Made by a program: the position numbers and the translations under genes. Shown here one piece after another: positions 4,889 through 63,953 of a stretch of 64,000 bases of DNA. How positions within the stretch are numbered: position 1 is the first letter of the stretch; every line of letters begins with the position of its first letter. This DNA is from Naegleria gruberi (taxonomy: Eukaryota): NCBI GenBank assembly GCA_000004985.1, contig GG738905.1; one strand, 5' to 3'. The notes below the pieces were generated by a model that was not told where the DNA came from, ran no database searches, and saw only the letters and a program-made list of their open reading frames with translations.

Positions 4889-5644
4889 ATGTGTTGGTCT
4901 CTCAGAGCTTCCTTGTTCTTTTCCATCCTAGGAGGATTGATGACTTTGGATCAGATTCGAAGAACACTTGCTATTCGAAAGGAGTGGAGAGCACGGAGTA
5001 TATCTCAAGTATTAATGTACCTGTCGTATACCTTGATGGAATTCCTACAATTTCTACAGTATTGGTTTGGAATTGAAGGAACGTGTGGCACCACTTCAAA
5101 TATTTTCCTGTCAATTGTGGCTCACTTTCTAATTTGGACTCAACCACTGGCACACAATTATTGGTGTTTAAGGAATACAGCGAAGGGAAGAAGTACTTTC
5201 AGATATGCTTTGTTTTGCTCCTTCTCCACCCTAATTCTGGCAAGTATCAGTTTGGCAATGGGTTATTTTCAAGTTGGTGGATTTGGTGTTGGAATTGAAA
5301 ATGACAATCTGGAAGGTGTTCCAGGAAATGTTTTGGGAATTGAAATTCAAAATGTGAATACCAAATTGTGTTCAATGCAAGGACCTAATCATTTATATTG
5401 GATGTTTCCCTATCATCCAATATGGGGACATGGCATTTCGTGGTTTACTTGGTTGATGGTTGCTGCATTTCCTCATTTCTTTAGATATTCAGTTAAGGAT
5501 AATGATTTCTTTGGAAAGAGTTGGGTGATGGGAAGTGTTGTCGTTGGTGGATGGTTAGTTGCCTTGGCAGTCACTTTGACAATTGGCAATTTCCATGAGA
5601 CACCTTCTTATTGGTGCCTTATTTCAGTTCCATGTTTGGTGTAG
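4889..5644 (+). CDS. hypothetical multi-pass membrane protein (251 aa)
   Basis: ORF with about 6 hydrophobic helices and a W/F/Y-rich composition typical of an integral membrane protein. Confidence 0.45.
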   Translation: MCWSLRASLFFSILGGLMTLDQIRRTLAIRKEWRARSISQVLMYLSYTLMEFLQFLQYWFGIEGTCGTTSNIFLSIVAHFLIWTQPLAHNYWCLRNTAKGRSTFRYALFCSFSTLILASISLAMGYFQVGGFGVGIENDNLEGVPGNVLGIEIQNVNTKLCSMQGPNHLYWMFPYHPIWGHGISWFTWLMVAAFPHFFRYSVKDNDFFGKSWVMGSVVVGGWLVALAVTLTIGNFHETPSYWCLISVPCLV

Positions 5645-5696: not shown

Positions 5697-5968
5697 TGTA
5701 TGTCAAAATGCCAAAGTCTTCATCTTCTGAATATGATTCAAAGAAAGTTGCCTAATTTTTGAGGGATGAGAATTGATGGATTGAAAGCCTCCATCTCATT
5801 GAGAATGAGCATTGACAATAATAGTGGAATCATTCAATGTCGATTTGAAACTATTTCAAATAAATTTCGAGTTGGAATCTGCTACTTTTTTTAAGTGTTT
5901 GGTGATAAACGTTGGGTCAATTTGTTACTTTCCATTTTGAGGAGTCATGCAGATTTCTTGAATGAAAG
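5697..5968 (+). repeat. repeat A copy 1 (about 270 bp), directly abutting the retroelement's left end
   Basis: about 93% identical to 10149-10418 (aaagtcttcatcttctgaatatgattcaaagaaagttgcc...gatttcttgaatgaaag). Confidence 0.85.
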
Positions 5969-8900
5969 TTGAAGTGAGTACCCCACTCACTAAGGTTTAT
6001 TGTAAACTACACACACCAATAAATATGAAAAATTTTTGTCTGAAAAAATTTCAACACAGCAAGATGTTAAAAGACAAGATTTACGCTCTTATTAAAGAAC
6101 ACTCCAGTGATGTTATGGCTAGTATGCCTCCAAACACCATCAAGATGGTATTGGATCTACTTGGCGAAAACCCTGAAGACAAAGAAAGATGGCTAGAAAT
6201 TGTTGAAGACGCAGGTGGTGCGTTATTCAACAACTTCTCAACAAAAGCAGAGGCCCAGGAATACTTTACCAAAGGTATTAAGAAGTTAGCAAAGAGTGGT
6301 AAAGTTGCTTCCACTAGAAGTAAGACTACCTCTTTGCAAGAGGCAAGCACTCCAAGTAACATGAATAAGACTTCTTCTTCATCTCAAATGGCTACCCCAA
6401 AGGTTTCTAGCGTTAGTCAGGTTAGAGAGTTCGTCCAAAAGAGAAGGATTGAAGAAACAGACGACAAGGAGTGGAAGAGAAGAGGTGTTATTCTTGACCC
6501 AGCTGATTTCCTTGAAAAGCCAGCTACTTGGAATCTCCCAAGTAGACAACAATGGGAAGAGATGAACCGCCAAATCAACATTTTAGTGGTCGGTAAACAG
6601 GTTGAAGAAAAGGTTAAGGAAACGTTTCCGCCATTGAGTACCAATAACCAAGCATTGAAAGCAGAGTACGACACCTTGAAAGAGGTCGCAGGAAGCGTCT
6701 ACGGTGCTGCATTGTTGAACAAGGATGAGTCAGTTGCAGACAAGTTGGAGGGTGCCATTGAATATATCAAGGAGAAAGCGGTACACCTCAAGCTCGTTTC
6801 CTTCGACAAGCATCTTGCGGAGAAGGTTCGTATCATTCGTTCAGATAAGACCTGGAGAGAACAGGCTGACCTTATTAAGGTCGCCTCCAAGTTGATGAAG
6901 GTAGAAAGTGAAGTGATTAAGAATGGAAACTTGCCAGTCATCAATAATATGACTAAAGCTGTTGAAAAGGCAAGAGATACCTATCCTGTAGCTTCCCACT
7001 GTTTCAAATGCGGAGAAGTTGGACACTTGGCAAAGAATTGCAATAAATCCACTTCCAAATACGTCTCGGTAAGTACTATTTTTCGATCCTCCAGATGCGG
7101 CAGAGATACGGGAGAGGAAACAAGCTGTTCACTCCATTTCGAATGCTTGGAAGGAGTGGAAGAGAAGAGGAGCGAAACCTTCGATAATAAGGCTCCTGAA
7201 AGAGGGTGTGAAAGTGCTTCCTTCAACAGGGTTCAAAAGATCAGTGGAGACAGTAAATTCAGCCAAGTTCTCAATAAGGGAACTACAGTGGTTGGAAAGG
7301 GAGATAAATTTGCTAAAGAAGATTGGTGCATTAGAAGCTTGTCAGAATGCGGAAGTAGTGGCCAAGTTCAGATTGGTACCAAAGGGAGAACAGTACAGAT
7401 TGATTGTAGACTTGAGACCCTTAAACAAATATTGCCTCATCCCCAAATTCAAGTACAACACATTGAAGAGATTCTTAGAGTTTATTCCAGAATCTGGAAC
7501 CATGTTCCTATCATCATTCGATTTGAAGTCTGGGTACCACCAGCTAAAAGTCCACAAGGACTCAAGAAAATTTTTTGCTATCAACTATTTTGGACAATTA
7601 TTACAGTTTACTGTGTTGCCCTTTGGCTGGAATGGATCACCATAGAACTTCACTTTGGTAATGAATCAAGCGGTAATTTTGATGGAATCACCACTCATGC
7701 GTCTTTCCAATTATTTGGACGATGTGCAAATAGTGAATGTAGTGGAAGAAACAATAGCCGTACAGAATGTAGAAATATGCAGGGAAGATGCAAACCAGCT
7801 TGGTTTAGTGTTAGAGAGAAGAAAGAGTGTAATGAAACCAATGACAGAATTAGTAGTGTTGGGGTCATGTGTGAATATTATAACGAAGACACTATCAATG
7901 ACAGAGGCTACGATAGTGAAGATTACGAATATGATAAAATCAGTACTCACGCGGATTCATTTAGGCAAAACAGTGTCGGTAAGGAAGATGAGTTCGATAA
8001 GCGGGACAGTGATTGCTTATTTGGAATGTTTTATCCCAGCAAGGGTGATGCTTGCTCCCATATTCGCCTTAATAGCAAAAACAGTAGTGAAGTACGGATG
8101 GAAAGCTTCGGTATTCGTAAGGGATGTCAGGGTCATTCACAACCTTCAATGGATTATTGCAAATATAAGGATGTGGAATGGAAAACACTTCCAGAGGCCA
8201 TCATTGGTCTATTACTTCTGGACAGATGCATCAGATTGGGGTTGGGGAGCATATTTCGAGGAGAAGGACTTGAAGATAGGTGGTCAATGGTCGGAACAAG
8301 AAAGAAAACTTCATATCCATATAAGAGAAATGTTAGCGGTGTTAAGAGCTTTGATGGAATGGAAGCATTTGTTCGAAGAGAGAAAGATCATTATTTATGT
8401 GGACAATTGGATTATCTTACACAACATTTTAAAGGGATGGGCAAAAAGCCCACTTATGAGAAGGTTAATTATGAGCTTCTGGAGAATTATATTCAGCCAC
8501 AATATAACTCTATTGTCTGTGGAATGGTTACCGTCGGAAGAGAATTATATGGCAGACGGGATCAGCAGGGGGATAATGAACGATCCCACGGATTGGGAGA
8601 TGACTATTCCAGCATTTCAAAGGATTCAGAAGGAACTTCTAGTGGAAATAGGATTCGACAGATTCGCTTCCCACGTAAGCTTCAAAGTCAAGCCTTACAT
8701 GGTAAGAGAAAGAAATTTCAGAGGAGAGAAAGCAGACGCCTTCTCTACATTATGGACAGAAGAGGTTGTAAATTTGTGTTGCGTCCCATTCAACTTAATA
8801 GGAAGAGTATTGAAACATTGCGAAGAATCAAAAGCTATAATGGTGTTGATTCATCCAGTATGGAAGAGAAGGTTTTGGTGGCCAATTCTAGAAAAGTATC

Positions 8901-9927
8901 GTATAAGGAGTGTATCGATGAATGGAAAGGACTTCTTTACAAAGTCCAATACAGGTCACGTAGAACCTTGCAAGAAATCTTGGCTATTAGAGGCAAGTCT
9001 GATAGATTGTCGAACTCGGAACTAATTAGAATTGCCAAGGAGGTCATTAGCTCTCACAGATACAAAGAGAGCACTGACAAGAACTACAGAAGATATTGGG
9101 TGCGCTTTATTAGATTTAACATTGAAAGAAAGGCTTGTTTTCCTCCTTCAGAAGATAATCTTATTGCTTTCCTGACGAACATGTTCCTTAAAACACCGTC
9201 AGGAAGCAACTGCAGTGCAGCATATGCTGCTATCATGGCATTTGCCAAGAAATTTAGTTTAGATCAGGGAATGCGAGGAGATAATATTCGAGAAGTTTTA
9301 AATGGAATGACTAATCTTTCAAGAGTGGCTAGTGAGAAGGAAAGAAATGCTTGGCAACTAGAATTTATTAGAAAGTGGGTGAGCATAGGTAGGAGAAGCG
9401 TGTCTGACAGAGAATTTGTATTATACACATCTATGATGATCATAGGTCTACGAACTATGTTGAGAGGAAGTGAACTTGGTGAACTAAAGACCGAAGATGT
9501 TCAATTTCTTCGCTTGGAGAATGGTAAAATGGCAGTCAAATTGAAATGTAGAAGAGTTAAATCTAGTCAGGGTAGAATGGGTAGAATTATGTGTATAGAG
9601 AGTACAGGAAATGATTTGTGCCCAGTATCTTGGTTGAATAGGTGGATGGTGTATAGAGATCAAGGTGATTACTTATTTGGTAATAGTAAGGCTTTGACTA
9701 CAATCGACATTTCGTGGATACTGAGATTTGTGGCGTCAGTTATTGGAGTAGATGGATGTTTCTCCTCTCATTCTTTAAGAATTGGAGGTGCTAATGAAGC
9801 AGCTCAAGCAGGTTTTTCTCTCGCTGCTATTCAAGCTTTAGGCAACTGGTCTTCAAATGCGGTTGACAAATATTTCAGATCTGAGTTTTTCTATAGTAGA
9901 AACGTATCAAAAGAATTGGGTTTCTAG
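5962..9927 (+). CDS. element frame-1 ORF: Gag-like N-terminus with CCHC zinc knuckle and tyrosine recombinase C-terminus; the middle 1.9 kb of this frame overlaps the RT/RH frame
   Basis: Zinc knuckle CFKCGEVGHLAKNC. C-terminal recombinase motifs RGSELGELKTEDV ... HSLRIGGANEAAQAGFSLAAIQALGNWSSNAVDKYF (R..HxLR..GNW..Y). Confidence 0.7.
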   Translation: MKVEVSTPLTKVYCKLHTPINMKNFCLKKFQHSKMLKDKIYALIKEHSSDVMASMPPNTIKMVLDLLGENPEDKERWLEIVEDAGGALFNNFSTKAEAQEYFTKGIKKLAKSGKVASTRSKTTSLQEASTPSNMNKTSSSSQMATPKVSSVSQVREFVQKRRIEETDDKEWKRRGVILDPADFLEKPATWNLPSRQQWEEMNRQINILVVGKQVEEKVKETFPPLSTNNQALKAEYDTLKEVAGSVYGAALLNKDESVADKLEGAIEYIKEKAVHLKLVSFDKHLAEKVRIIRSDKTWREQADLIKVASKLMKVESEVIKNGNLPVINNMTKAVEKARDTYPVASHCFKCGEVGHLAKNCNKSTSKYVSVSTIFRSSRCGRDTGEETSCSLHFECLEGVEEKRSETFDNKAPERGCESASFNRVQKISGDSKFSQVLNKGTTVVGKGDKFAKEDWCIRSLSECGSSGQVQIGTKGRTVQIDCRLETLKQILPHPQIQVQHIEEILRVYSRIWNHVPIIIRFEVWVPPAKSPQGLKKIFCYQLFWTIITVYCVALWLEWITIELHFGNESSGNFDGITTHASFQLFGRCANSECSGRNNSRTECRNMQGRCKPAWFSVREKKECNETNDRISSVGVMCEYYNEDTINDRGYDSEDYEYDKISTHADSFRQNSVGKEDEFDKRDSDCLFGMFYPSKGDACSHIRLNSKNSSEVRMESFGIRKGCQGHSQPSMDYCKYKDVEWKTLPEAIIGLLLLDRCIRLGLGSIFRGEGLEDRWSMVGTRKKTSYPYKRNVSGVKSFDGMEAFVRREKDHYLCGQLDYLTQHFKGMGKKPTYEKVNYELLENYIQPQYNSIVCGMVTVGRELYGRRDQQGDNERSHGLGDDYSSISKDSEGTSSGNRIRQIRFPRKLQSQALHGKRKKFQRRESRRLLYIMDRRGCKFVLRPIQLNRKSIETLRRIKSYNGVDSSSMEEKVLVANSRKVSYKECIDEWKGLLYKVQYRSRRTLQEILAIRGKSDRLSNSELIRIAKEVISSHRYKESTDKNYRRYWVRFIRFNIERKACFPPSEDNLIAFLTNMFLKTPSGSNCSAAYAAIMAFAKKFSLDQGMRGDNIREVLNGMTNLSRVASEKERNAWQLEFIRKWVSIGRRSVSDREFVLYTSMMIIGLRTMLRGSELGELKTEDVQFLRLENGKMAVKLKCRRVKSSQGRMGRIMCIESTGNDLCPVSWLNRWMVYRDQGDYLFGNSKALTTIDISWILRFVASVIGVDGCFSSHSLRIGGANEAAQAGFSLAAIQALGNWSSNAVDKYFRSEFFYSRNVSKELGF
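5969..6088 (+). repeat. 120-bp terminal direct repeat B1 of the DIRS-like element
   Basis: ttgaagtgagtaccccactcactaaggtttattgtaaactacacacaccaataaatatg...gatttacgctc is identical to 9973-10092. It contains the ATG and first ~40 codons of the element ORF. Confidence 0.9.
7208..9025 (+). CDS. element pol frame: reverse transcriptase + RNase H, interrupted by one in-frame TAG at 7646-7648 (degenerate copy or readthrough)
   Basis: RT motifs LVPKGEQYRLIVDLRPLNKY, FSSFDLKSGYHQ, VLPFGWNGSP and then YLDDVQIV after the stop. RNase H motifs TDASDWGWGAYF ... EKADAFS. Confidence 0.75.
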
Positions 9928-9972
9928 TAGGGGCTCATTGTTTTCGTATTTATTGGTGTGTAGTTGGATAAA

Positions 9973-10092
9973 TTGAAGTGAGTACCCCACTCACTAAGGT
10001 TTATTGTAAACTACACACACCAATAAATATGAAAAATTTTTGTCTGAAAAAATTTCAACACAGCAAGATGTTAAAAGACAAGATTTACGCTC
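9973..10092 (+). repeat. 120-bp direct repeat B2 (right end of the DIRS-like element), followed by the gap
   Basis: identical to 5969-6088; preceded at 9947-9965 by an inverted copy of an internal B segment. Confidence 0.9.
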
Positions 10093-10098
10093 CCACCA

Positions 10099-10148
10099 NN
10101 NNNNNNNNNNNNNNNNNNNNNNNNNNNNNNNNNNNNNNNNNNNNNNNN
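10099..10148. other. assembly gap (50 N)
   Basis: run of N. Confidence 1.
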
Positions 10149-10418
10149 AAAGTCTTCATCTTCTGAATATGATTCAAAGAAAGTTGCCTAATTTATGAGA
10201 ATGGATGAGAATGGATGGATTGAAAGCATTTCATCTCATTGAGAATGAGTATTGACAATAATAGTAGAATCATTCAATGTCGATTTGAAACTATTTCAAA
10301 TAAATTTCGTTATTGCAATCTGCCACATTTTTTAAGTGTTTGGTGACAAATGTTGGTCAGTTTGTTATTTTCCATTTTTGAGGTGTCACGCCGATTTCTT
10401 GAATGAAAGATTTCTCTT
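10149..10418 (+). repeat. repeat A copy 2, followed by unique non-element sequence
   Basis: about 93% identical to 5697-5968; ends at the same ...gaatgaaag boundary. Confidence 0.85.
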
Positions 10419-39030: not shown

Positions 39031-41055
39031 ATGAAAGCACCCAGCATTCGTCTACTTCTCACACTCTCCCTGGTCGGCCTCTTCTTCATCATTATTACTT
39101 TCGGATTATTTTCAAAACGTAAAGGAAATGACATTTCCGAGTCAATTACAACTGGACGTGTGGCATTAGATAAAATTGACAGCAAATCCAGCACTTCAAA
39201 ACCTGCACCACCTCCACCTCCTCCTCCTCCTACCTATTGTGTATCCAATGATGTTCTTTACTTTGGTCAACTCACACATAATGGAAATTTGAACGGACAA
39301 ATGAAACGAATGTATGAAGCAGTTCATCCGAGAAGCAAGGAACCATTCTTGAAAAAGGAAAATACATTTTTCTTTACGGATATCGAACCATCTCCTTCCC
39401 ATGTCTCATTCTTTTCCAGAATTACTTTAATGGCATCAAAAGGAGGGAAGGTTGGATATGATGGAGCTCAGAGACGTTTTCTCGAGTCAATTTTTACAAT
39501 GTTAGAGTTGAAGAAGGAGAGGAATGATAAACGAGTGAGATGGTTCATGTTGAGTGATGATGACCATATGAGTATTCCTGCTAATTTGATGCGTACATTG
39601 GCAAAATATGAATTGAAATTGGAAAGAGGTGAATTGAGTGTGGATGAGCCATTAATTATTGGAAGAACACCTGAATGTAGAGCTGTTAGTGGAGGAGCTG
39701 GTGTCATCTTTAATGAAAAGGCCATTGAAGTGCTCAAGGTTAATATGGAAGAATGTATTAAGAAAGTTGGTTTACAATGGTATGATTATACCATTTACAG
39801 ATGTGTGAATGATGTTCTCACAAAGACAAAGGAGGAAAAGTGCAAGATTTTGAAACATGAAACTTCCATGCATTGTTGTAATTACATGTATTTCTGTGAT
39901 CCTTCAAGTTTTAAGGATCCACCAAATTTGAGCTGGTTCAATAGATTTAGAAAGGCAACTGGATTCCATTACCTTCAAGGAGATCACGTCAATAGGATGA
40001 AGGAGAATTTACCAGATAGTTTCTTTACAAAGATTGATAAATGCTTCCCAGTATCAGAGTTAGAGAAGGAACTTGATGGATACATGCCAAGTGTTTCATC
40101 TTCAAATAAGAATTTACGTGAAATTTTACAACAAGTTGAAAGTATGCCAGTAGTGAGGCCACCTTCACTCGATTGGATAAAGAGTGAATCGAAACAGCAA
40201 GATGAGAGTGTTGTCTCTTTCATGACAGGTTTGATTGAAATAATCTTTAGCAATTGGGAAAATCAATTCGCAAGCAATAGAAAACCAATAGATCAAACTC
40301 TGGAGAGAAAGGACATTGCCATTGCTGTTATTCCAAGTCCCCTCATTGAATCTAGAGCTTCACTCATTGCTAGAGAATATAACATCTCATCCCAAGTTGA
40401 ACTCTCTCTCAATTATTGGCAACAATCTGGATTTAATGCTCATGTATGTGAATCCACACACACTTCAAAGATTTCTCTCTATGCAGAGTGTCTGAAAAAG
40501 TCATCAACATCCTCCAAATGGACCCTAGTTGTCTCCGAATCAACAAGAATTAATTCAGATTCCCTCCTTCAATATTTGAAAACTTTCAGCAATTCTGCAA
40601 AGCTTTACATTGGTGGAATGCGATCAGCTCAAGAATTAATCCTATCACAATTGGAAGGAAAATCTATTGGACTTCCATTTGGAGCTCTCTTTGCTGTTAG
40701 CTCTCCATTCATTGAGGAATATTTATCCATCGCCACTACTTCTTCTACCTTGAAGGAAAGCATCATTCAGGAACAAATCAACGATCGTCTTCTCATTCCA
40801 AATACTGGAATGATTCTGAGTGGTGGTCACTTTTTCACTCATGCACCAGAACACTACTGCACAAAAGGAATTACAAATGTAGAGTCGTGGATTGAAATGC
40901 AAGTTCCAACCAAAGAATTGGAACCAATGACTGTGACCTTCTCTCCAACTAATAATTGTCTTGGAAGAATGAATTCGATTAATCAATTTTTCAATAAGAT
41001 TGATAAGAGTTTGCTTGGATCACCTACTGGCATTAACCATAATTGTTTTGAATAA
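39031..41055 (+). CDS. type II membrane protein, Fringe/GT31-like (DUF604-like) glycosyltransferase candidate
   Basis: N-terminal signal anchor LLLTLSLVGLFFIIITFGLF, poly-Pro stem, and RWFMLSDDDHMSIPANL (DxD-type motif) in a Fringe-like context; tentative. Confidence 0.45.
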   Translation: MKAPSIRLLLTLSLVGLFFIIITFGLFSKRKGNDISESITTGRVALDKIDSKSSTSKPAPPPPPPPPTYCVSNDVLYFGQLTHNGNLNGQMKRMYEAVHPRSKEPFLKKENTFFFTDIEPSPSHVSFFSRITLMASKGGKVGYDGAQRRFLESIFTMLELKKERNDKRVRWFMLSDDDHMSIPANLMRTLAKYELKLERGELSVDEPLIIGRTPECRAVSGGAGVIFNEKAIEVLKVNMEECIKKVGLQWYDYTIYRCVNDVLTKTKEEKCKILKHETSMHCCNYMYFCDPSSFKDPPNLSWFNRFRKATGFHYLQGDHVNRMKENLPDSFFTKIDKCFPVSELEKELDGYMPSVSSSNKNLREILQQVESMPVVRPPSLDWIKSESKQQDESVVSFMTGLIEIIFSNWENQFASNRKPIDQTLERKDIAIAVIPSPLIESRASLIAREYNISSQVELSLNYWQQSGFNAHVCESTHTSKISLYAECLKKSSTSSKWTLVVSESTRINSDSLLQYLKTFSNSAKLYIGGMRSAQELILSQLEGKSIGLPFGALFAVSSPFIEEYLSIATTSSTLKESIIQEQINDRLLIPNTGMILSGGHFFTHAPEHYCTKGITNVESWIEMQVPTKELEPMTVTFSPTNNCLGRMNSINQFFNKIDKSLLGSPTGINHNCFE

Positions 41056-61062: not shown

Positions 61063-61099
61063 TCTTTTCTTTAATTCTGCTTCAATTTTAATAAATTGA

Positions 61100-61632
61100 G
61101 GGGTTTGGGTTTGGGGTTGGGGTTGGGGTTGGGTTGGGTTTGGGTTTGGGTTTGGGTTTGGGTTTGGGTTTGGGTTTGGGTTTGGGTTTGGGTTTGGGTT
61201 TGGGTTTGGGTTTGGGTTTGGGTTTGGGTTTGGGTTTGGGTTTGGGTTTGGGTTTGGGTTTGGGTTTGGGTTTGGGGTTTGGGTTTGGGTTTGGGTTTGG
61301 GTTTGGGTTTGGGTTTGGGTTTGGGTTTGGGTTTGGGTTTGGGTTTGGGTTTGGGTTTGGGTTTGGGTTTGGGTTTGGGTTTGGGTTTGGGTTTGGGTTT
61401 GGGTTTGGGTTTGGGTTTGGGTTTGGGTTTGGGTTTGGGTTTGGGTTTGGGTTTGGGTTTGGGTTTGGGTTTGGGTTTGGGTTTGGGTTTGGGTTTGGGT
61501 TTGGGTTTGGGTTTGGGTTTGGGTTTGGGTTTGGGTTTGGGTTTGGGTTTGGGTTTGGGTTTGGGTTTGGGTTTGGGTTTGGGTTTGGGTTTGGGTTTGG
61601 GTTTGGGTTTGGGTTTGGGTTTGGGTTTGGGT
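61100..61632 (+). repeat. telomere-like hexamer array (TTTGGG)n, about 88 perfect units, with degenerate TTGGGG/TTGGG units at the proximal (left) junction; continues into the gap
   Basis: directly visible: ...gagGGGTTTGGGTTTGGGGTTGGGGTTGGGGTTGGGTTGGGTTTGGG(TTTGGG)n; the G-rich strand reads 5'->3' toward the gap. Confidence 0.9.
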
Positions 61633-62890
61633 NNNNNNNNNNNNNNNNNNNNNNNNNNNNNNNNNNNNNNNNNNNNNNNNNNNNNNNNNNNNNNNNNNNN
61701 NNNNNNNNNNNNNNNNNNNNNNNNNNNNNNNNNNNNNNNNNNNNNNNNNNNNNNNNNNNNNNNNNNNNNNNNNNNNNNNNNNNNNNNNNNNNNNNNNNNN
61801 NNNNNNNNNNNNNNNNNNNNNNNNNNNNNNNNNNNNNNNNNNNNNNNNNNNNNNNNNNNNNNNNNNNNNNNNNNNNNNNNNNNNNNNNNNNNNNNNNNNN
61901 NNNNNNNNNNNNNNNNNNNNNNNNNNNNNNNNNNNNNNNNNNNNNNNNNNNNNNNNNNNNNNNNNNNNNNNNNNNNNNNNNNNNNNNNNNNNNNNNNNNN
62001 NNNNNNNNNNNNNNNNNNNNNNNNNNNNNNNNNNNNNNNNNNNNNNNNNNNNNNNNNNNNNNNNNNNNNNNNNNNNNNNNNNNNNNNNNNNNNNNNNNNN
62101 NNNNNNNNNNNNNNNNNNNNNNNNNNNNNNNNNNNNNNNNNNNNNNNNNNNNNNNNNNNNNNNNNNNNNNNNNNNNNNNNNNNNNNNNNNNNNNNNNNNN
62201 NNNNNNNNNNNNNNNNNNNNNNNNNNNNNNNNNNNNNNNNNNNNNNNNNNNNNNNNNNNNNNNNNNNNNNNNNNNNNNNNNNNNNNNNNNNNNNNNNNNN
62301 NNNNNNNNNNNNNNNNNNNNNNNNNNNNNNNNNNNNNNNNNNNNNNNNNNNNNNNNNNNNNNNNNNNNNNNNNNNNNNNNNNNNNNNNNNNNNNNNNNNN
62401 NNNNNNNNNNNNNNNNNNNNNNNNNNNNNNNNNNNNNNNNNNNNNNNNNNNNNNNNNNNNNNNNNNNNNNNNNNNNNNNNNNNNNNNNNNNNNNNNNNNN
62501 NNNNNNNNNNNNNNNNNNNNNNNNNNNNNNNNNNNNNNNNNNNNNNNNNNNNNNNNNNNNNNNNNNNNNNNNNNNNNNNNNNNNNNNNNNNNNNNNNNNN
62601 NNNNNNNNNNNNNNNNNNNNNNNNNNNNNNNNNNNNNNNNNNNNNNNNNNNNNNNNNNNNNNNNNNNNNNNNNNNNNNNNNNNNNNNNNNNNNNNNNNNN
62701 NNNNNNNNNNNNNNNNNNNNNNNNNNNNNNNNNNNNNNNNNNNNNNNNNNNNNNNNNNNNNNNNNNNNNNNNNNNNNNNNNNNNNNNNNNNNNNNNNNNN
62801 NNNNNNNNNNNNNNNNNNNNNNNNNNNNNNNNNNNNNNNNNNNNNNNNNNNNNNNNNNNNNNNNNNNNNNNNNNNNNNNNNNNNNNNNNN
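61633..62890. other. assembly gap (1258 N)
   Basis: run of N; ORF-track entries 61071-63953, 61088-62983, 61096-63012 and 61134-62948 are artefacts of translating N and hexamer repeats. Confidence 1.
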
Positions 62891-63953
62891 TTCTTCTAAC
62901 CGTATTATTCTTCTTAATTTTGTTGTTGTCTTCCTTATTGCCTTCTGAATCTGATTCATCAGCTTCAGGTGGTTCGTTCTCAATAACTATTTTTTTCCAA
63001 ATATTCTTTTGAACATGGCAATATACAGAATTTTTCTTTTCTTCACTAAAATCTGACAAACTTTCAGAACATGATTTCAGTTTCTCGAAATCTTGTTTTA
63101 AAGTTGCCAATGTTGTTTGCCATTCTGAACTAATCTGCATATTAGGATTTGTTTTCAATCCGTGCCATTTCTTTTTGAACTTGGAGGACATGTATAACGT
63201 ACGTGTAGGAAGCAAAATAGATTCTGCAAAGGAAGGTAAATTGAATTTACCTTTATGATTTGATTTTCTTTGACCTATCATTCTACCAAGGGAATGATAT
63301 GCTTCACATCCTTGATTCATATATTTTGTTAAGCTTCCATACTTTTCCAAAAGATCCGGTAAATGATACAAAATAATATTAATATAGTAAGCAAGTTGAT
63401 CATTTGGAAAGGCTTCTCTTAAAACCTTTTTAGTGAAACTCAAATACTCTTTCAATTCTTCTTTCTTAAAATTCAAATCCAATAGCCCTTGACTGGCTTC
63501 AAGGTAATGATATATTATGAATCTAAGTGATGACCACACTTTAAAATCATTATCATTAAATTGGGTATCCGATAATGATTCCATCATAATTGATTCATAA
63601 TTTAACAAAATCATATCAGCTTGATCTGCATTCATATAAGGAACTTCTAATTCAATTTTGTCATTTGTCGCTTGTAGAGCAAGTGTTGTGGCAGGTTGTT
63701 TCTTTCTAAATTGAAATTGAGACATTCCCTTCAATTTCTGAATTTTAGCTTCGAGGGATTTAATTCCTGACACTGTCATCTTAGAAATTTGAAGGGATAA
63801 CAAACAGCCAACAATTCTCAATTTTGCATGAAGTATGTCAATAACTACATTGGTGAATAAATTTGGAAATTTTTGAAAATAATGAGCTGGGGGAGCAAAA
63901 GCAAAATCCTTCTCCATTCTATCATCATATACACAGGGACAATATGGACACAC
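62891..63953 (-). CDS. N-terminal ~350 aa of a Cys-rich (CPYCPC) protein, possibly transposase-derived (TNP2/EnSpm-like or similar); C-terminus lost in the gap
   Basis: ORF begins MCPYCPCVYDDRMEKDF; segment IILYHLPDLLEKYGSLTKYMNQGCEAYHSLGRMI is reminiscent of conserved transposase-family blocks; family assignment uncertain. Confidence 0.35.

Follow-up and report, generated by a model that had tools for sequence, protein, structure and literature searches.

A stretch of 64,000 nucleotides (nt) of Naegleria gruberi DNA (GenBank assembly GCA_000004985.1, contig GG738905.1; the window, below) contains a tyrosine recombinase (YR) retroelement of the DIRS order that starts at about position 5969, and in which a single reading frame runs from gag to the recombinase while pol is encoded beneath it in another frame (Table 1). 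Frame 1 has no stops between 5959 and 9925, giving an open reading frame (ORF) of 1321 codons that carries a CCHC knuckle (7000-7041), a SAM-like domain (9031-9252) and a Phage_integrase domain (9430-9873). Frame 2 is open over 7073-9022 except for a single TAG at 7643-7645, and frame 3 has 84 stops across the same ~1.95 kb. An earlier note on this DNA, made from the letters and their ORFs, had placed the frame-1 ORF at 5962-9927 and pol in frame 2 from 7208. The stop-free link from gag to recombinase and the matches of frame 2 to reverse transcriptase (RT) and to RNase H both stand, but the two starts do not: the ATG at 5962 falls in flanking DNA, outside the element, and 7208 is only the first GTG of a pol frame that opens at 7073 and has the one internal TAG.

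Table 1. Coding parts, repeats and candidate signals of the Naegleria gruberi element (positions in the window)
Feature	Position	Strand	Remarks
A1, 5' terminal direct repeat	5969..6088	+	5966-6088 vs 9970-10092, 99% identical
gag, frame 1	6025..7068	+	candidate ATGs 6025, 6064, 6115; PF00098 zf-CCHC at amino acids 346-361
pol, frame 2	7073..9025	+	RVT_1 and RT_RNaseH matches; TAA stop 9023-9025
candidate +1 frameshift site AUU UUU CGA	7078..7086	+	predicted from sequence
spacer, frame 1, 646 codons overprinted on pol	7087..9024	+	stop-free
RT within pol	7373 to ~7900	+	YLDD at 7712-7723
RNase H within pol	~8213-8416	+	
methyltransferase (MT)-like region within pol	~8588-8899	+	alignment to relatives
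tyrosine recombinase, frame 1	8965..9927	+	PF13495 and PF00589; TAG stop 9925-9927
long hairpin	9941..10035	+	9941-9961 pairs with 10015-10035 inside A2; inverted repeats
A2, internal copy of the 5' repeat	9970..10092	+	6 nt, then assembly gap

A protein search with the whole 1321-amino-acid translation of frame 1 returned no matches, and the pol and YR parts were searched separately instead. Pol is 54% identical to P0001 and 53% identical to P0002. Its C-terminal 150 amino acids align with P0003, P0004 and P0005 with 15 invariant columns, and three of the five aligned segments match PF05869 (Dam), with a best E of 4.7e-09; the window pol itself has no direct match to PF05869 even at E<=10, and a profile search against solved structures (PDB) gave nothing significant. 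The recombinase, conserved at its N-terminus from 8965, has, in its catalytic domain, HSLR at 9769 and the Tyr of AVDKYFR at 9859-9879, and is 46-51% identical to P0056, P0057 and P0058 and 43% identical to P0060 of Naegleria lovaniensis. Gag is 24% identical (tblastn) to the gag of L001, a related locus described below, and a Pfam search with the spacer, the part of frame 1 that overlies pol, found no domain even at E<=10.

The TAG in pol sits between the RT motifs LPFGWNGSP and YLDD, at a position where relatives have Phe or Tyr, and frame 1 stays open across it (GAA). It most simply reflects a change from TAC to TAG, a TAC ancestor being favoured over TAT, which would already have put a stop into frame 1. 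Because of this TAG in the RT, the copy in the window, which is also incompletely assembled, is probably defective and non-autonomous.

Selection on pol synonymous sites keeps the spacer frame free of stops

That frame 1 should stay open over pol by chance had been called highly improbable, and our simulations confirm this. When the pol codons were shuffled synonymously with the protein held fixed, frame 1 acquired a mean of 30.7 stops and a minimum of 18 (n=5000), and when codons were drawn from the usage of the non-overlapped gag and YR parts, again with the pol protein fixed, the mean was 54.5 and the minimum 34, so that 0 stops are observed where 31-55 are expected. For frame 1 to acquire a stop, a pol codon must end in T and the next codon must start with AA, AG or GA; T occupies none of the 193 third positions at which it would form such a stop. 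In other contexts T is found at 26/101, 34/114 and 73/241 of the pol third positions (26-30%), and in gag and YR it fills 27-37% of the equivalent 'dangerous' positions. Since T is at normal levels in these other contexts and in gag and YR, its depletion is tied specifically to stops, and an effect of dinucleotides or composition is not the cause. The same absence is seen at the stop-forming sites of relatives (L001, 0/151; L002, 0/103; L004, 0/215; L028, 0/159), and the control L005, which lacks the overlap, has T at 55 of 140 such sites.

Considering that the region is rich in A+G, one might suppose that purine-rich coding DNA simply happens to be stop-free in a second frame. Every one of the protein-preserving shuffles, however, contained stops (at least 18), T is depleted only before AA, AG or GA, and the pattern recurs in independent relatives, those without the overlap having 30-66 stops; we count chance and composition as refuted, with a negligible probability of being correct. 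The spacer frame is held free of stops by selection on the synonymous sites of pol.

Searches with the pol and YR proteins identified a small clade of relatives, composed of L001 (from a JGI metagenome, with 54% pol identity and 46% YR identity to the window), L002/L003, L085 and L086 (ENA metagenomes) and L084 (Naegleria lovaniensis). Over the pol retained in each, the equivalent of frame 1 has no stops in 627 codons of L001, 586 of L002, 283 of L086 and 147 of L084, and L085 has a single stop in the overlapping frame, located at its truncation boundary. Two indels in L001 and two in L002 move both frames together, and their ORF lists therefore look different from that of the window; once the indels are taken into account, the gag-spacer-YR frame of L001 is uninterrupted, as it is in the window. 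Stops scattered through frame 1 in other copies, the pattern that the earlier note had named as telling against its proposal, were looked for and are absent in the six related copies. Because L001, like the window, has no stop after gag, the continuity is a feature of the clade and not a mutation of the copy in the window.

Two independent 5'-truncated copies of this clade (L002 2-1705 and L085 565-1908) lie directly 3' of protein-kinase ORFs, and in L002 the kinase ORF and the spacer are in the same frame with one stop between them.

The spacer itself was compared between relatives, with a null in which synonymous codons were reassigned while stops were avoided. At codons that specify the same pol residue in the window and in L001, third-position identity is 0.410 in the overlap vs 0.417 in the non-overlapped YR. 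The spacer translations of these two elements are 0.30 identical, vs 0.265 +/- 0.016 under the null, and across pairs spacer amino acid identity is 0.26-0.44, which is 0.3-2.6 standard deviations above the null; this small excess matches the residual synonymous similarity of the control. These alignments show selection on openness alone, the amino acid sequence of the putative spacer product being essentially unconstrained beyond the demands of pol. The spacer behaves, as judged from these substitution patterns, as a translatable stretch and not as a conserved protein. Of the proposal that the two frames are overlapping genes, then, the non-random dual openness holds, but the overlapping frame shows avoidance of stops only and no conservation of a protein. 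As a clean natural case of selection for translatability alone over ~2 kb, the region should be of use to methods for calling overlapping genes.

Relatives with and without a stop between gag and spacer

A metagenome scan added 80 more distant pol relatives, with 23-31% identity. Over pol, the -1 frame of approximately 60 of these contains 30-66 stops, and that of 12 loci, representing about eight families (L004/L056, L007/L008, L010, L019/L020, L028, L030, L063 and L065), contains none or two. In these overlap-type families pol occupies the +1 frame with respect to the gag-frame ORF and, wherever upstream sequence is present, gag and the long -1 ORF share a frame with exactly one stop between them. 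All eight families have TGA as this stop, and in seven of them the next base is C; as a control, the out-of-frame upstream ORFs of families without the overlap are closed by a mixed set of stops (TAA, TAG and TGA). In the loci whose sequence extends that far (L007, L010 and L028), the -1 ORF ends in a C-terminal YR domain.

UGA-C and UGA-CUAG are the most readthrough-prone stop contexts in eukaryotes, and readthrough of this kind operates in alphaviruses and in some cellular genes. The TGA-C between gag and the spacer-YR frame suggests that the stop is read through in the overlap-type families. In DIRS-like metagenomic loci that lack the overlap (L005, L011, L012, L016, L017 and L023) gag and pol are in frame and have between them TGA CTAG, the classic context for high-efficiency readthrough, which suggests that Gag-Pol is likewise made by readthrough there. 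The element in the window, unlike these relatives, has no stop at all.

The continuity of gag with the recombinase frame, which had been described as unusual, is indeed so: only the Naegleria clade (the window and L001) lacks the stop, whereas the eight other overlap-type families keep a single TGA. In a pol tree the overlap-type loci cluster, with the window and L001 placed inside the group, among L004, L029 and L028; this is a rough neighbour-joining (NJ) tree built on metagenomic fragments, with only metagenomic relatives included. Since the Naegleria clade is nested among overlap-type families, its stop-less state looks derived.

In L007 (2523-2540) and L010 (1641-1658) the pol frame has an ATG four nt ahead of the gag TGA (GATGCTTGAC and GATGTTTGAC, respectively), a layout that resembles termination-reinitiation sites. 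The same two loci occur as head-to-tail tandems in metagenomic contigs, with copies of L010 ~4457 bp apart and the YR tail of L007 (2-1123) repeated at 5426.

How recombinase and pol may be expressed

We think it probable that the element is expressed from an uninterrupted gag-spacer-YR ORF and an underlying pol in the +1 frame, by a combination of in-frame translation and shifting. Ribosomes that stay in frame would make a Gag-spacer-YR protein, with the spacer serving as a conduit that needs only to be translatable, and a fraction of ribosomes would shift by +1 within 7073-7102, likeliest at AUU UUU CGA, to make Gag-Pol. In the related families a leaky UGA-C would stand between gag and spacer, so that readthrough would extend Gag into the YR, and in the Naegleria clade this stop would have been lost.

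The first ATG of frame 2 is pol codon 144, inside the RT, and conserved pol sequence (EIRER...HSISN) is seen from 7103, 30 nt after the frame opens at 7073. With no usable ATG and with conservation from 7103, a +1 shift would have to fall in 7073-7102. Within this interval UUU is the only codon with perfect +1 re-pairing, as tRNA-Phe could move from UUU to UUC, and the equivalent place in L001 reads CCC UUU U, so that UUU-Y is common to both elements. The next codon, CGA, is used 3.4 times per 1000 codons in host ORFs vs 22 for AGA. Taken together, AUU UUU CGA is suggestive as a specific shift site. A further candidate for a shared slippery site, TTTTTTCGATC in L065, was set aside, as it lies upstream of the zinc knuckle of that element and is probably a coincidence.

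Pol might instead be reached by splicing or by transcriptional slippage, since the consensus 5' splice-site hexamer GTAAGT (7069-7074) lies exactly where frame 2 opens and contains the TAA that closes frame 2 immediately 5' of pol, and a T5 run follows at 7079-7083. Removal of 37 nt (7069-7105) would put gag and pol in phase, but such an intron would be very short and would cut into the conserved EIRER motif, a 26-nt GT..AG option ends in frame 3, and GTAAGT is not conserved in L001; an intron at 7069 was rejected on these grounds. Runs of T4-T5 are short for efficient slippage, and we regard either of these routes to pol as highly improbable.

Shifting onto a +1-frame pol that has no start of its own is known from Ty1 and Ty3 (textbook examples), and the candidate Naegleria site would work in a similar manner, with a P-site codon that re-pairs followed by an infrequent Arg codon. 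Unlike in Ty, where the gag frame ends soon after the shift site, the Naegleria gag frame continues open for a further 2.8 kb and encodes the predicted integration enzyme.

The recombinase, for its part, could be made as in a classical three-ORF arrangement, from an internal AUG in the overlap reached by leaky scanning, by reinitiation or from an RNA that is subgenomic or spliced; the portion over pol would then be a fast-evolving N-terminal extension of the YR, and its continuity with gag would be incidental. Published descriptions treat GAG, YR and pol as separate ORFs (PMC3266345, PMC3950715), about eleven in-frame frame-1 ATGs lie within the overlap, and spacer identity is slightly over the null (z up to 2.6), all of which would fit. 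An internal start, however, requires neither openness that reaches gag (the window and L001) nor exactly one TGA (the eight families), the window and L001 have no ATG position in common, and third-position conservation is no higher than in the non-overlapped YR. We therefore consider internal initiation unlikely.

Less likely still, in our judgement, is that the open frame serves the RNA, with non-shifted ribosomes protecting the genomic RNA from nonsense-mediated decay and the YR being a side benefit or made by another route. It would be consistent with selection for openness alone and not for sequence, and with the end of the ORF ~45 nt before the 3' repeat. At the same time, the frame always ends in an intact, in-phase YR domain, for which protein output is the simpler explanation, and in the families with a TGA after gag most ribosomes would still terminate early.

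Several points weigh against our proposal of a Gag-spacer-YR fusion with +1 shifting to pol. Frameshifting and reading of frame 0 are both deduced from sequence alone. A fusion made constitutively would provide no Gag on its own, nor is a protease domain detectable, which is odd for a retroelement. Each copy recovered from the Naegleria clade has some defect (a TAG, indels or a truncated 5' end), and the supporting pol tree has the roughness noted above. The route to pol is not uniform among families, given the ATG just before the TGA in L007 and L010, and the opening of the pol frame lies 3' of the gag stop in L004 and L063. As for the slippery site, it rests on two sequences, a perfect +1 re-pairing codon is not rare by chance within a stretch of 10-16 codons, CGA is only moderately rare, and we found no stable structure downstream of the site (z -0.9).

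With these reservations, the comparison can be extended to a wider proposal, namely that a whole branch of DIRS/PAT-type retrotransposons may make its YR as a C-terminal extension of Gag, by way of an overprinted conduit of ~650 codons that may drift in sequence provided that it stays stop-free, with a leaky UGA-C as the gate in most families and Naegleria as the ungated case in which Gag-YR would be the default and Gag-Pol would come from a +1 shift; we hold this to be evenly balanced between right and wrong. If true, the spacer would be among the longest dual-coding stretches kept purely for translatability, and the long-noted and unexplained overlap of DIRS ORFs would be explained. The model, in which Gag-YR is made by readthrough or direct fusion and Gag-Pol by recoding, is testable and draws on four results: the overlap is in the gag frame, TGA-C or nothing separates gag from it, it is open without amino acid constraint, and gag-TGA CTAG-pol is found in the families lacking the overlap.

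Long overlapping ORFs have been recognised in DIRS-type elements since 1985. Extensive overlap of the recombinase and RT ORFs, which had been put forward as a hallmark of DIRS-1, is a recognised trait of these elements: half of 28 DIRS1-like elements have a long ORF overlap, the catalytic YR domain being in the 3' part that does not overlap (PMC3266345, Piednoel 2011), DIRS ORFs are often extensively overlapped (PMC6681497, Ribeiro 2019), and a long pol/YR overlap is also documented as a DIRS feature in PMC9210276 and PMC5633606. The DIRS1-like elements with long overlap (DIRS-1 of D. discoideum; AcDIRS2, TnDIRS1a and XtDIRS2/3; PMC3266345 Table 3) likewise have a gag, a pol with RT, RNase H and MT, and a YR whose ORF reaches upstream over pol and has its catalytic domain at the 3' end, outside the overlap. 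Unlike in these elements, the Naegleria overlap spans all of pol and the ORF continues into gag without a stop. The long pol/YR overlap was already known, and what appears to be new, as an extreme form of it, is the uninterrupted gag-spacer-YR ORF.

In the literature that we searched we found no description of such an overlap in PAT elements, no explanation of how an overlapped recombinase is made in DIRS elements and nothing relevant on DIRS elements in combination with readthrough or frameshifting. The identity of the overlapping frame with that of gag, the TGA-C gate, the unconstrained spacer and the stop-less Naegleria variant were not found in this literature either, and a prior description, in particular of the shared gag/YR frame, may exist in older DIRS papers.

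Termini, classification and neighbouring sequence

The start of the element at ~5969 is set by the end of similarity between its flanks: 5713-5968 (256 nt) and 10149-10409 are 90% identical, and as these repeats stop exactly at the element boundary they represent flank. They could be a duplicated or alternative-haplotype empty site, an empty-site paralogue placed in tandem or a local duplication. The same repeats had at one point been taken for an odd nested terminal repeat, an idea dropped once the 50-N assembly gap at 10099-10148 was recognised. This gap swallows the true 3' end of the element.

The element has matches to RVT_1, RT_RNaseH, Phage_integrase and a SAM-like domain, all on one strand and between direct repeats, in keeping with the DIRS order, whose members combine RT/RNase H with a co-oriented tyrosine recombinase in place of a DDE integrase, and no integrase or protease domain match was found in it. 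DIRS1-like elements are defined by inverted terminal repeats and an internal complementary region (PMC3266345), PAT-like elements by split direct repeats in the arrangement A1 ... B1-A2-B2 (PMC4157794, PMC9210276), Pat1-like elements have a Gag zinc-finger motif (PMC4157794), and Ngaro elements are without an MT domain and usually lack the ORF overlap (PMC3266345). An MT-like (Dam, PF05869) domain 3' of RNase H distinguishes DIRS1-like and PAT-like elements from Ngaro and VIPER. In the window the terminal-type repeat is direct, with A2 ~45 nt 3' of the recombinase stop; the position of B2 would be inside the 50-N gap. No pair of inverted terminal repeats was found, the true 3' end being within the gap, and the complementarity of 9941-9961 does not have the geometry of an internal complementary region. 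The Gag carries a zinc finger (CFKCGEVGHLAKNC at 7000-7041; PF00098, E 1.4e-05), and the 1.9-kb ORF overlap, along with the MT-like region recognised by alignment, would separate the element from Ngaro.

The direct A1/A2 repeats, the zinc-knuckle Gag and the MT-like pol C-terminus place the element, on these structural features, probably with the PAT/Pat1-like group of the DIRS order rather than with DIRS-1 proper. The label DIRS-1-like used earlier is therefore apt for the long pol/YR overlap as a DIRS feature, but not for the termini, which are PAT-like, with direct A1/A2 copies instead of inverted terminal repeats and an internal complementary region; the host, a heterolobosean, also sets it apart from the DIRS1-like elements with long overlap. 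With Pat1-like/PAT elements (PMC4157794) it shares the direct A1/A2 repeats, the position of A2 3' of the YR, the Gag zinc knuckle and, as judged by alignment, an MT-like region. In N. gruberi, seven DIRS1-like copies have been listed, uncharacterised and degenerate (PMC3266345, Piednoel 2011), and the present analysis supplies a first account of how a YR retroelement of Naegleria is built.

The N. lovaniensis copy, L084, has an exact pair of 40-nt repeats (9368-9407 and 10084-10123) that begins just after the YR stop and is compatible with B1/B2. The pair (in PYSW02000001.1) encloses repeats containing GGATGCCT (9661-9916), including 81-nt units 136 nt apart.

The 21-mer at 9941-9961 that forms one arm of the long hairpin is also complementary to 6011-6031 inside A1. 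Folding of 9928-10098 gives a minimum free energy of -55.9 kcal/mol (z -6.8), with none of 200 shuffles equally stable, and a role of the hairpin in replication or priming is possible.

Elsewhere in the window, a 251-amino-acid ORF with a DUF5765 match (4889-5644), presumably a host gene, lies immediately 5' of the flank of the element, and the ORF at 39031-41052 is identical to XP_002671459.1 of Naegleria gruberi. Four overlapping ORFs of 600-960 amino acids on both strands at 61071-63953 were dismissed as an artefact of a ~1.35-kb run of N and a hexamer repeat. Adjoining this run of N is a perfect, telomere-like (GGGTTT)x88.7 array at 61101-61632.

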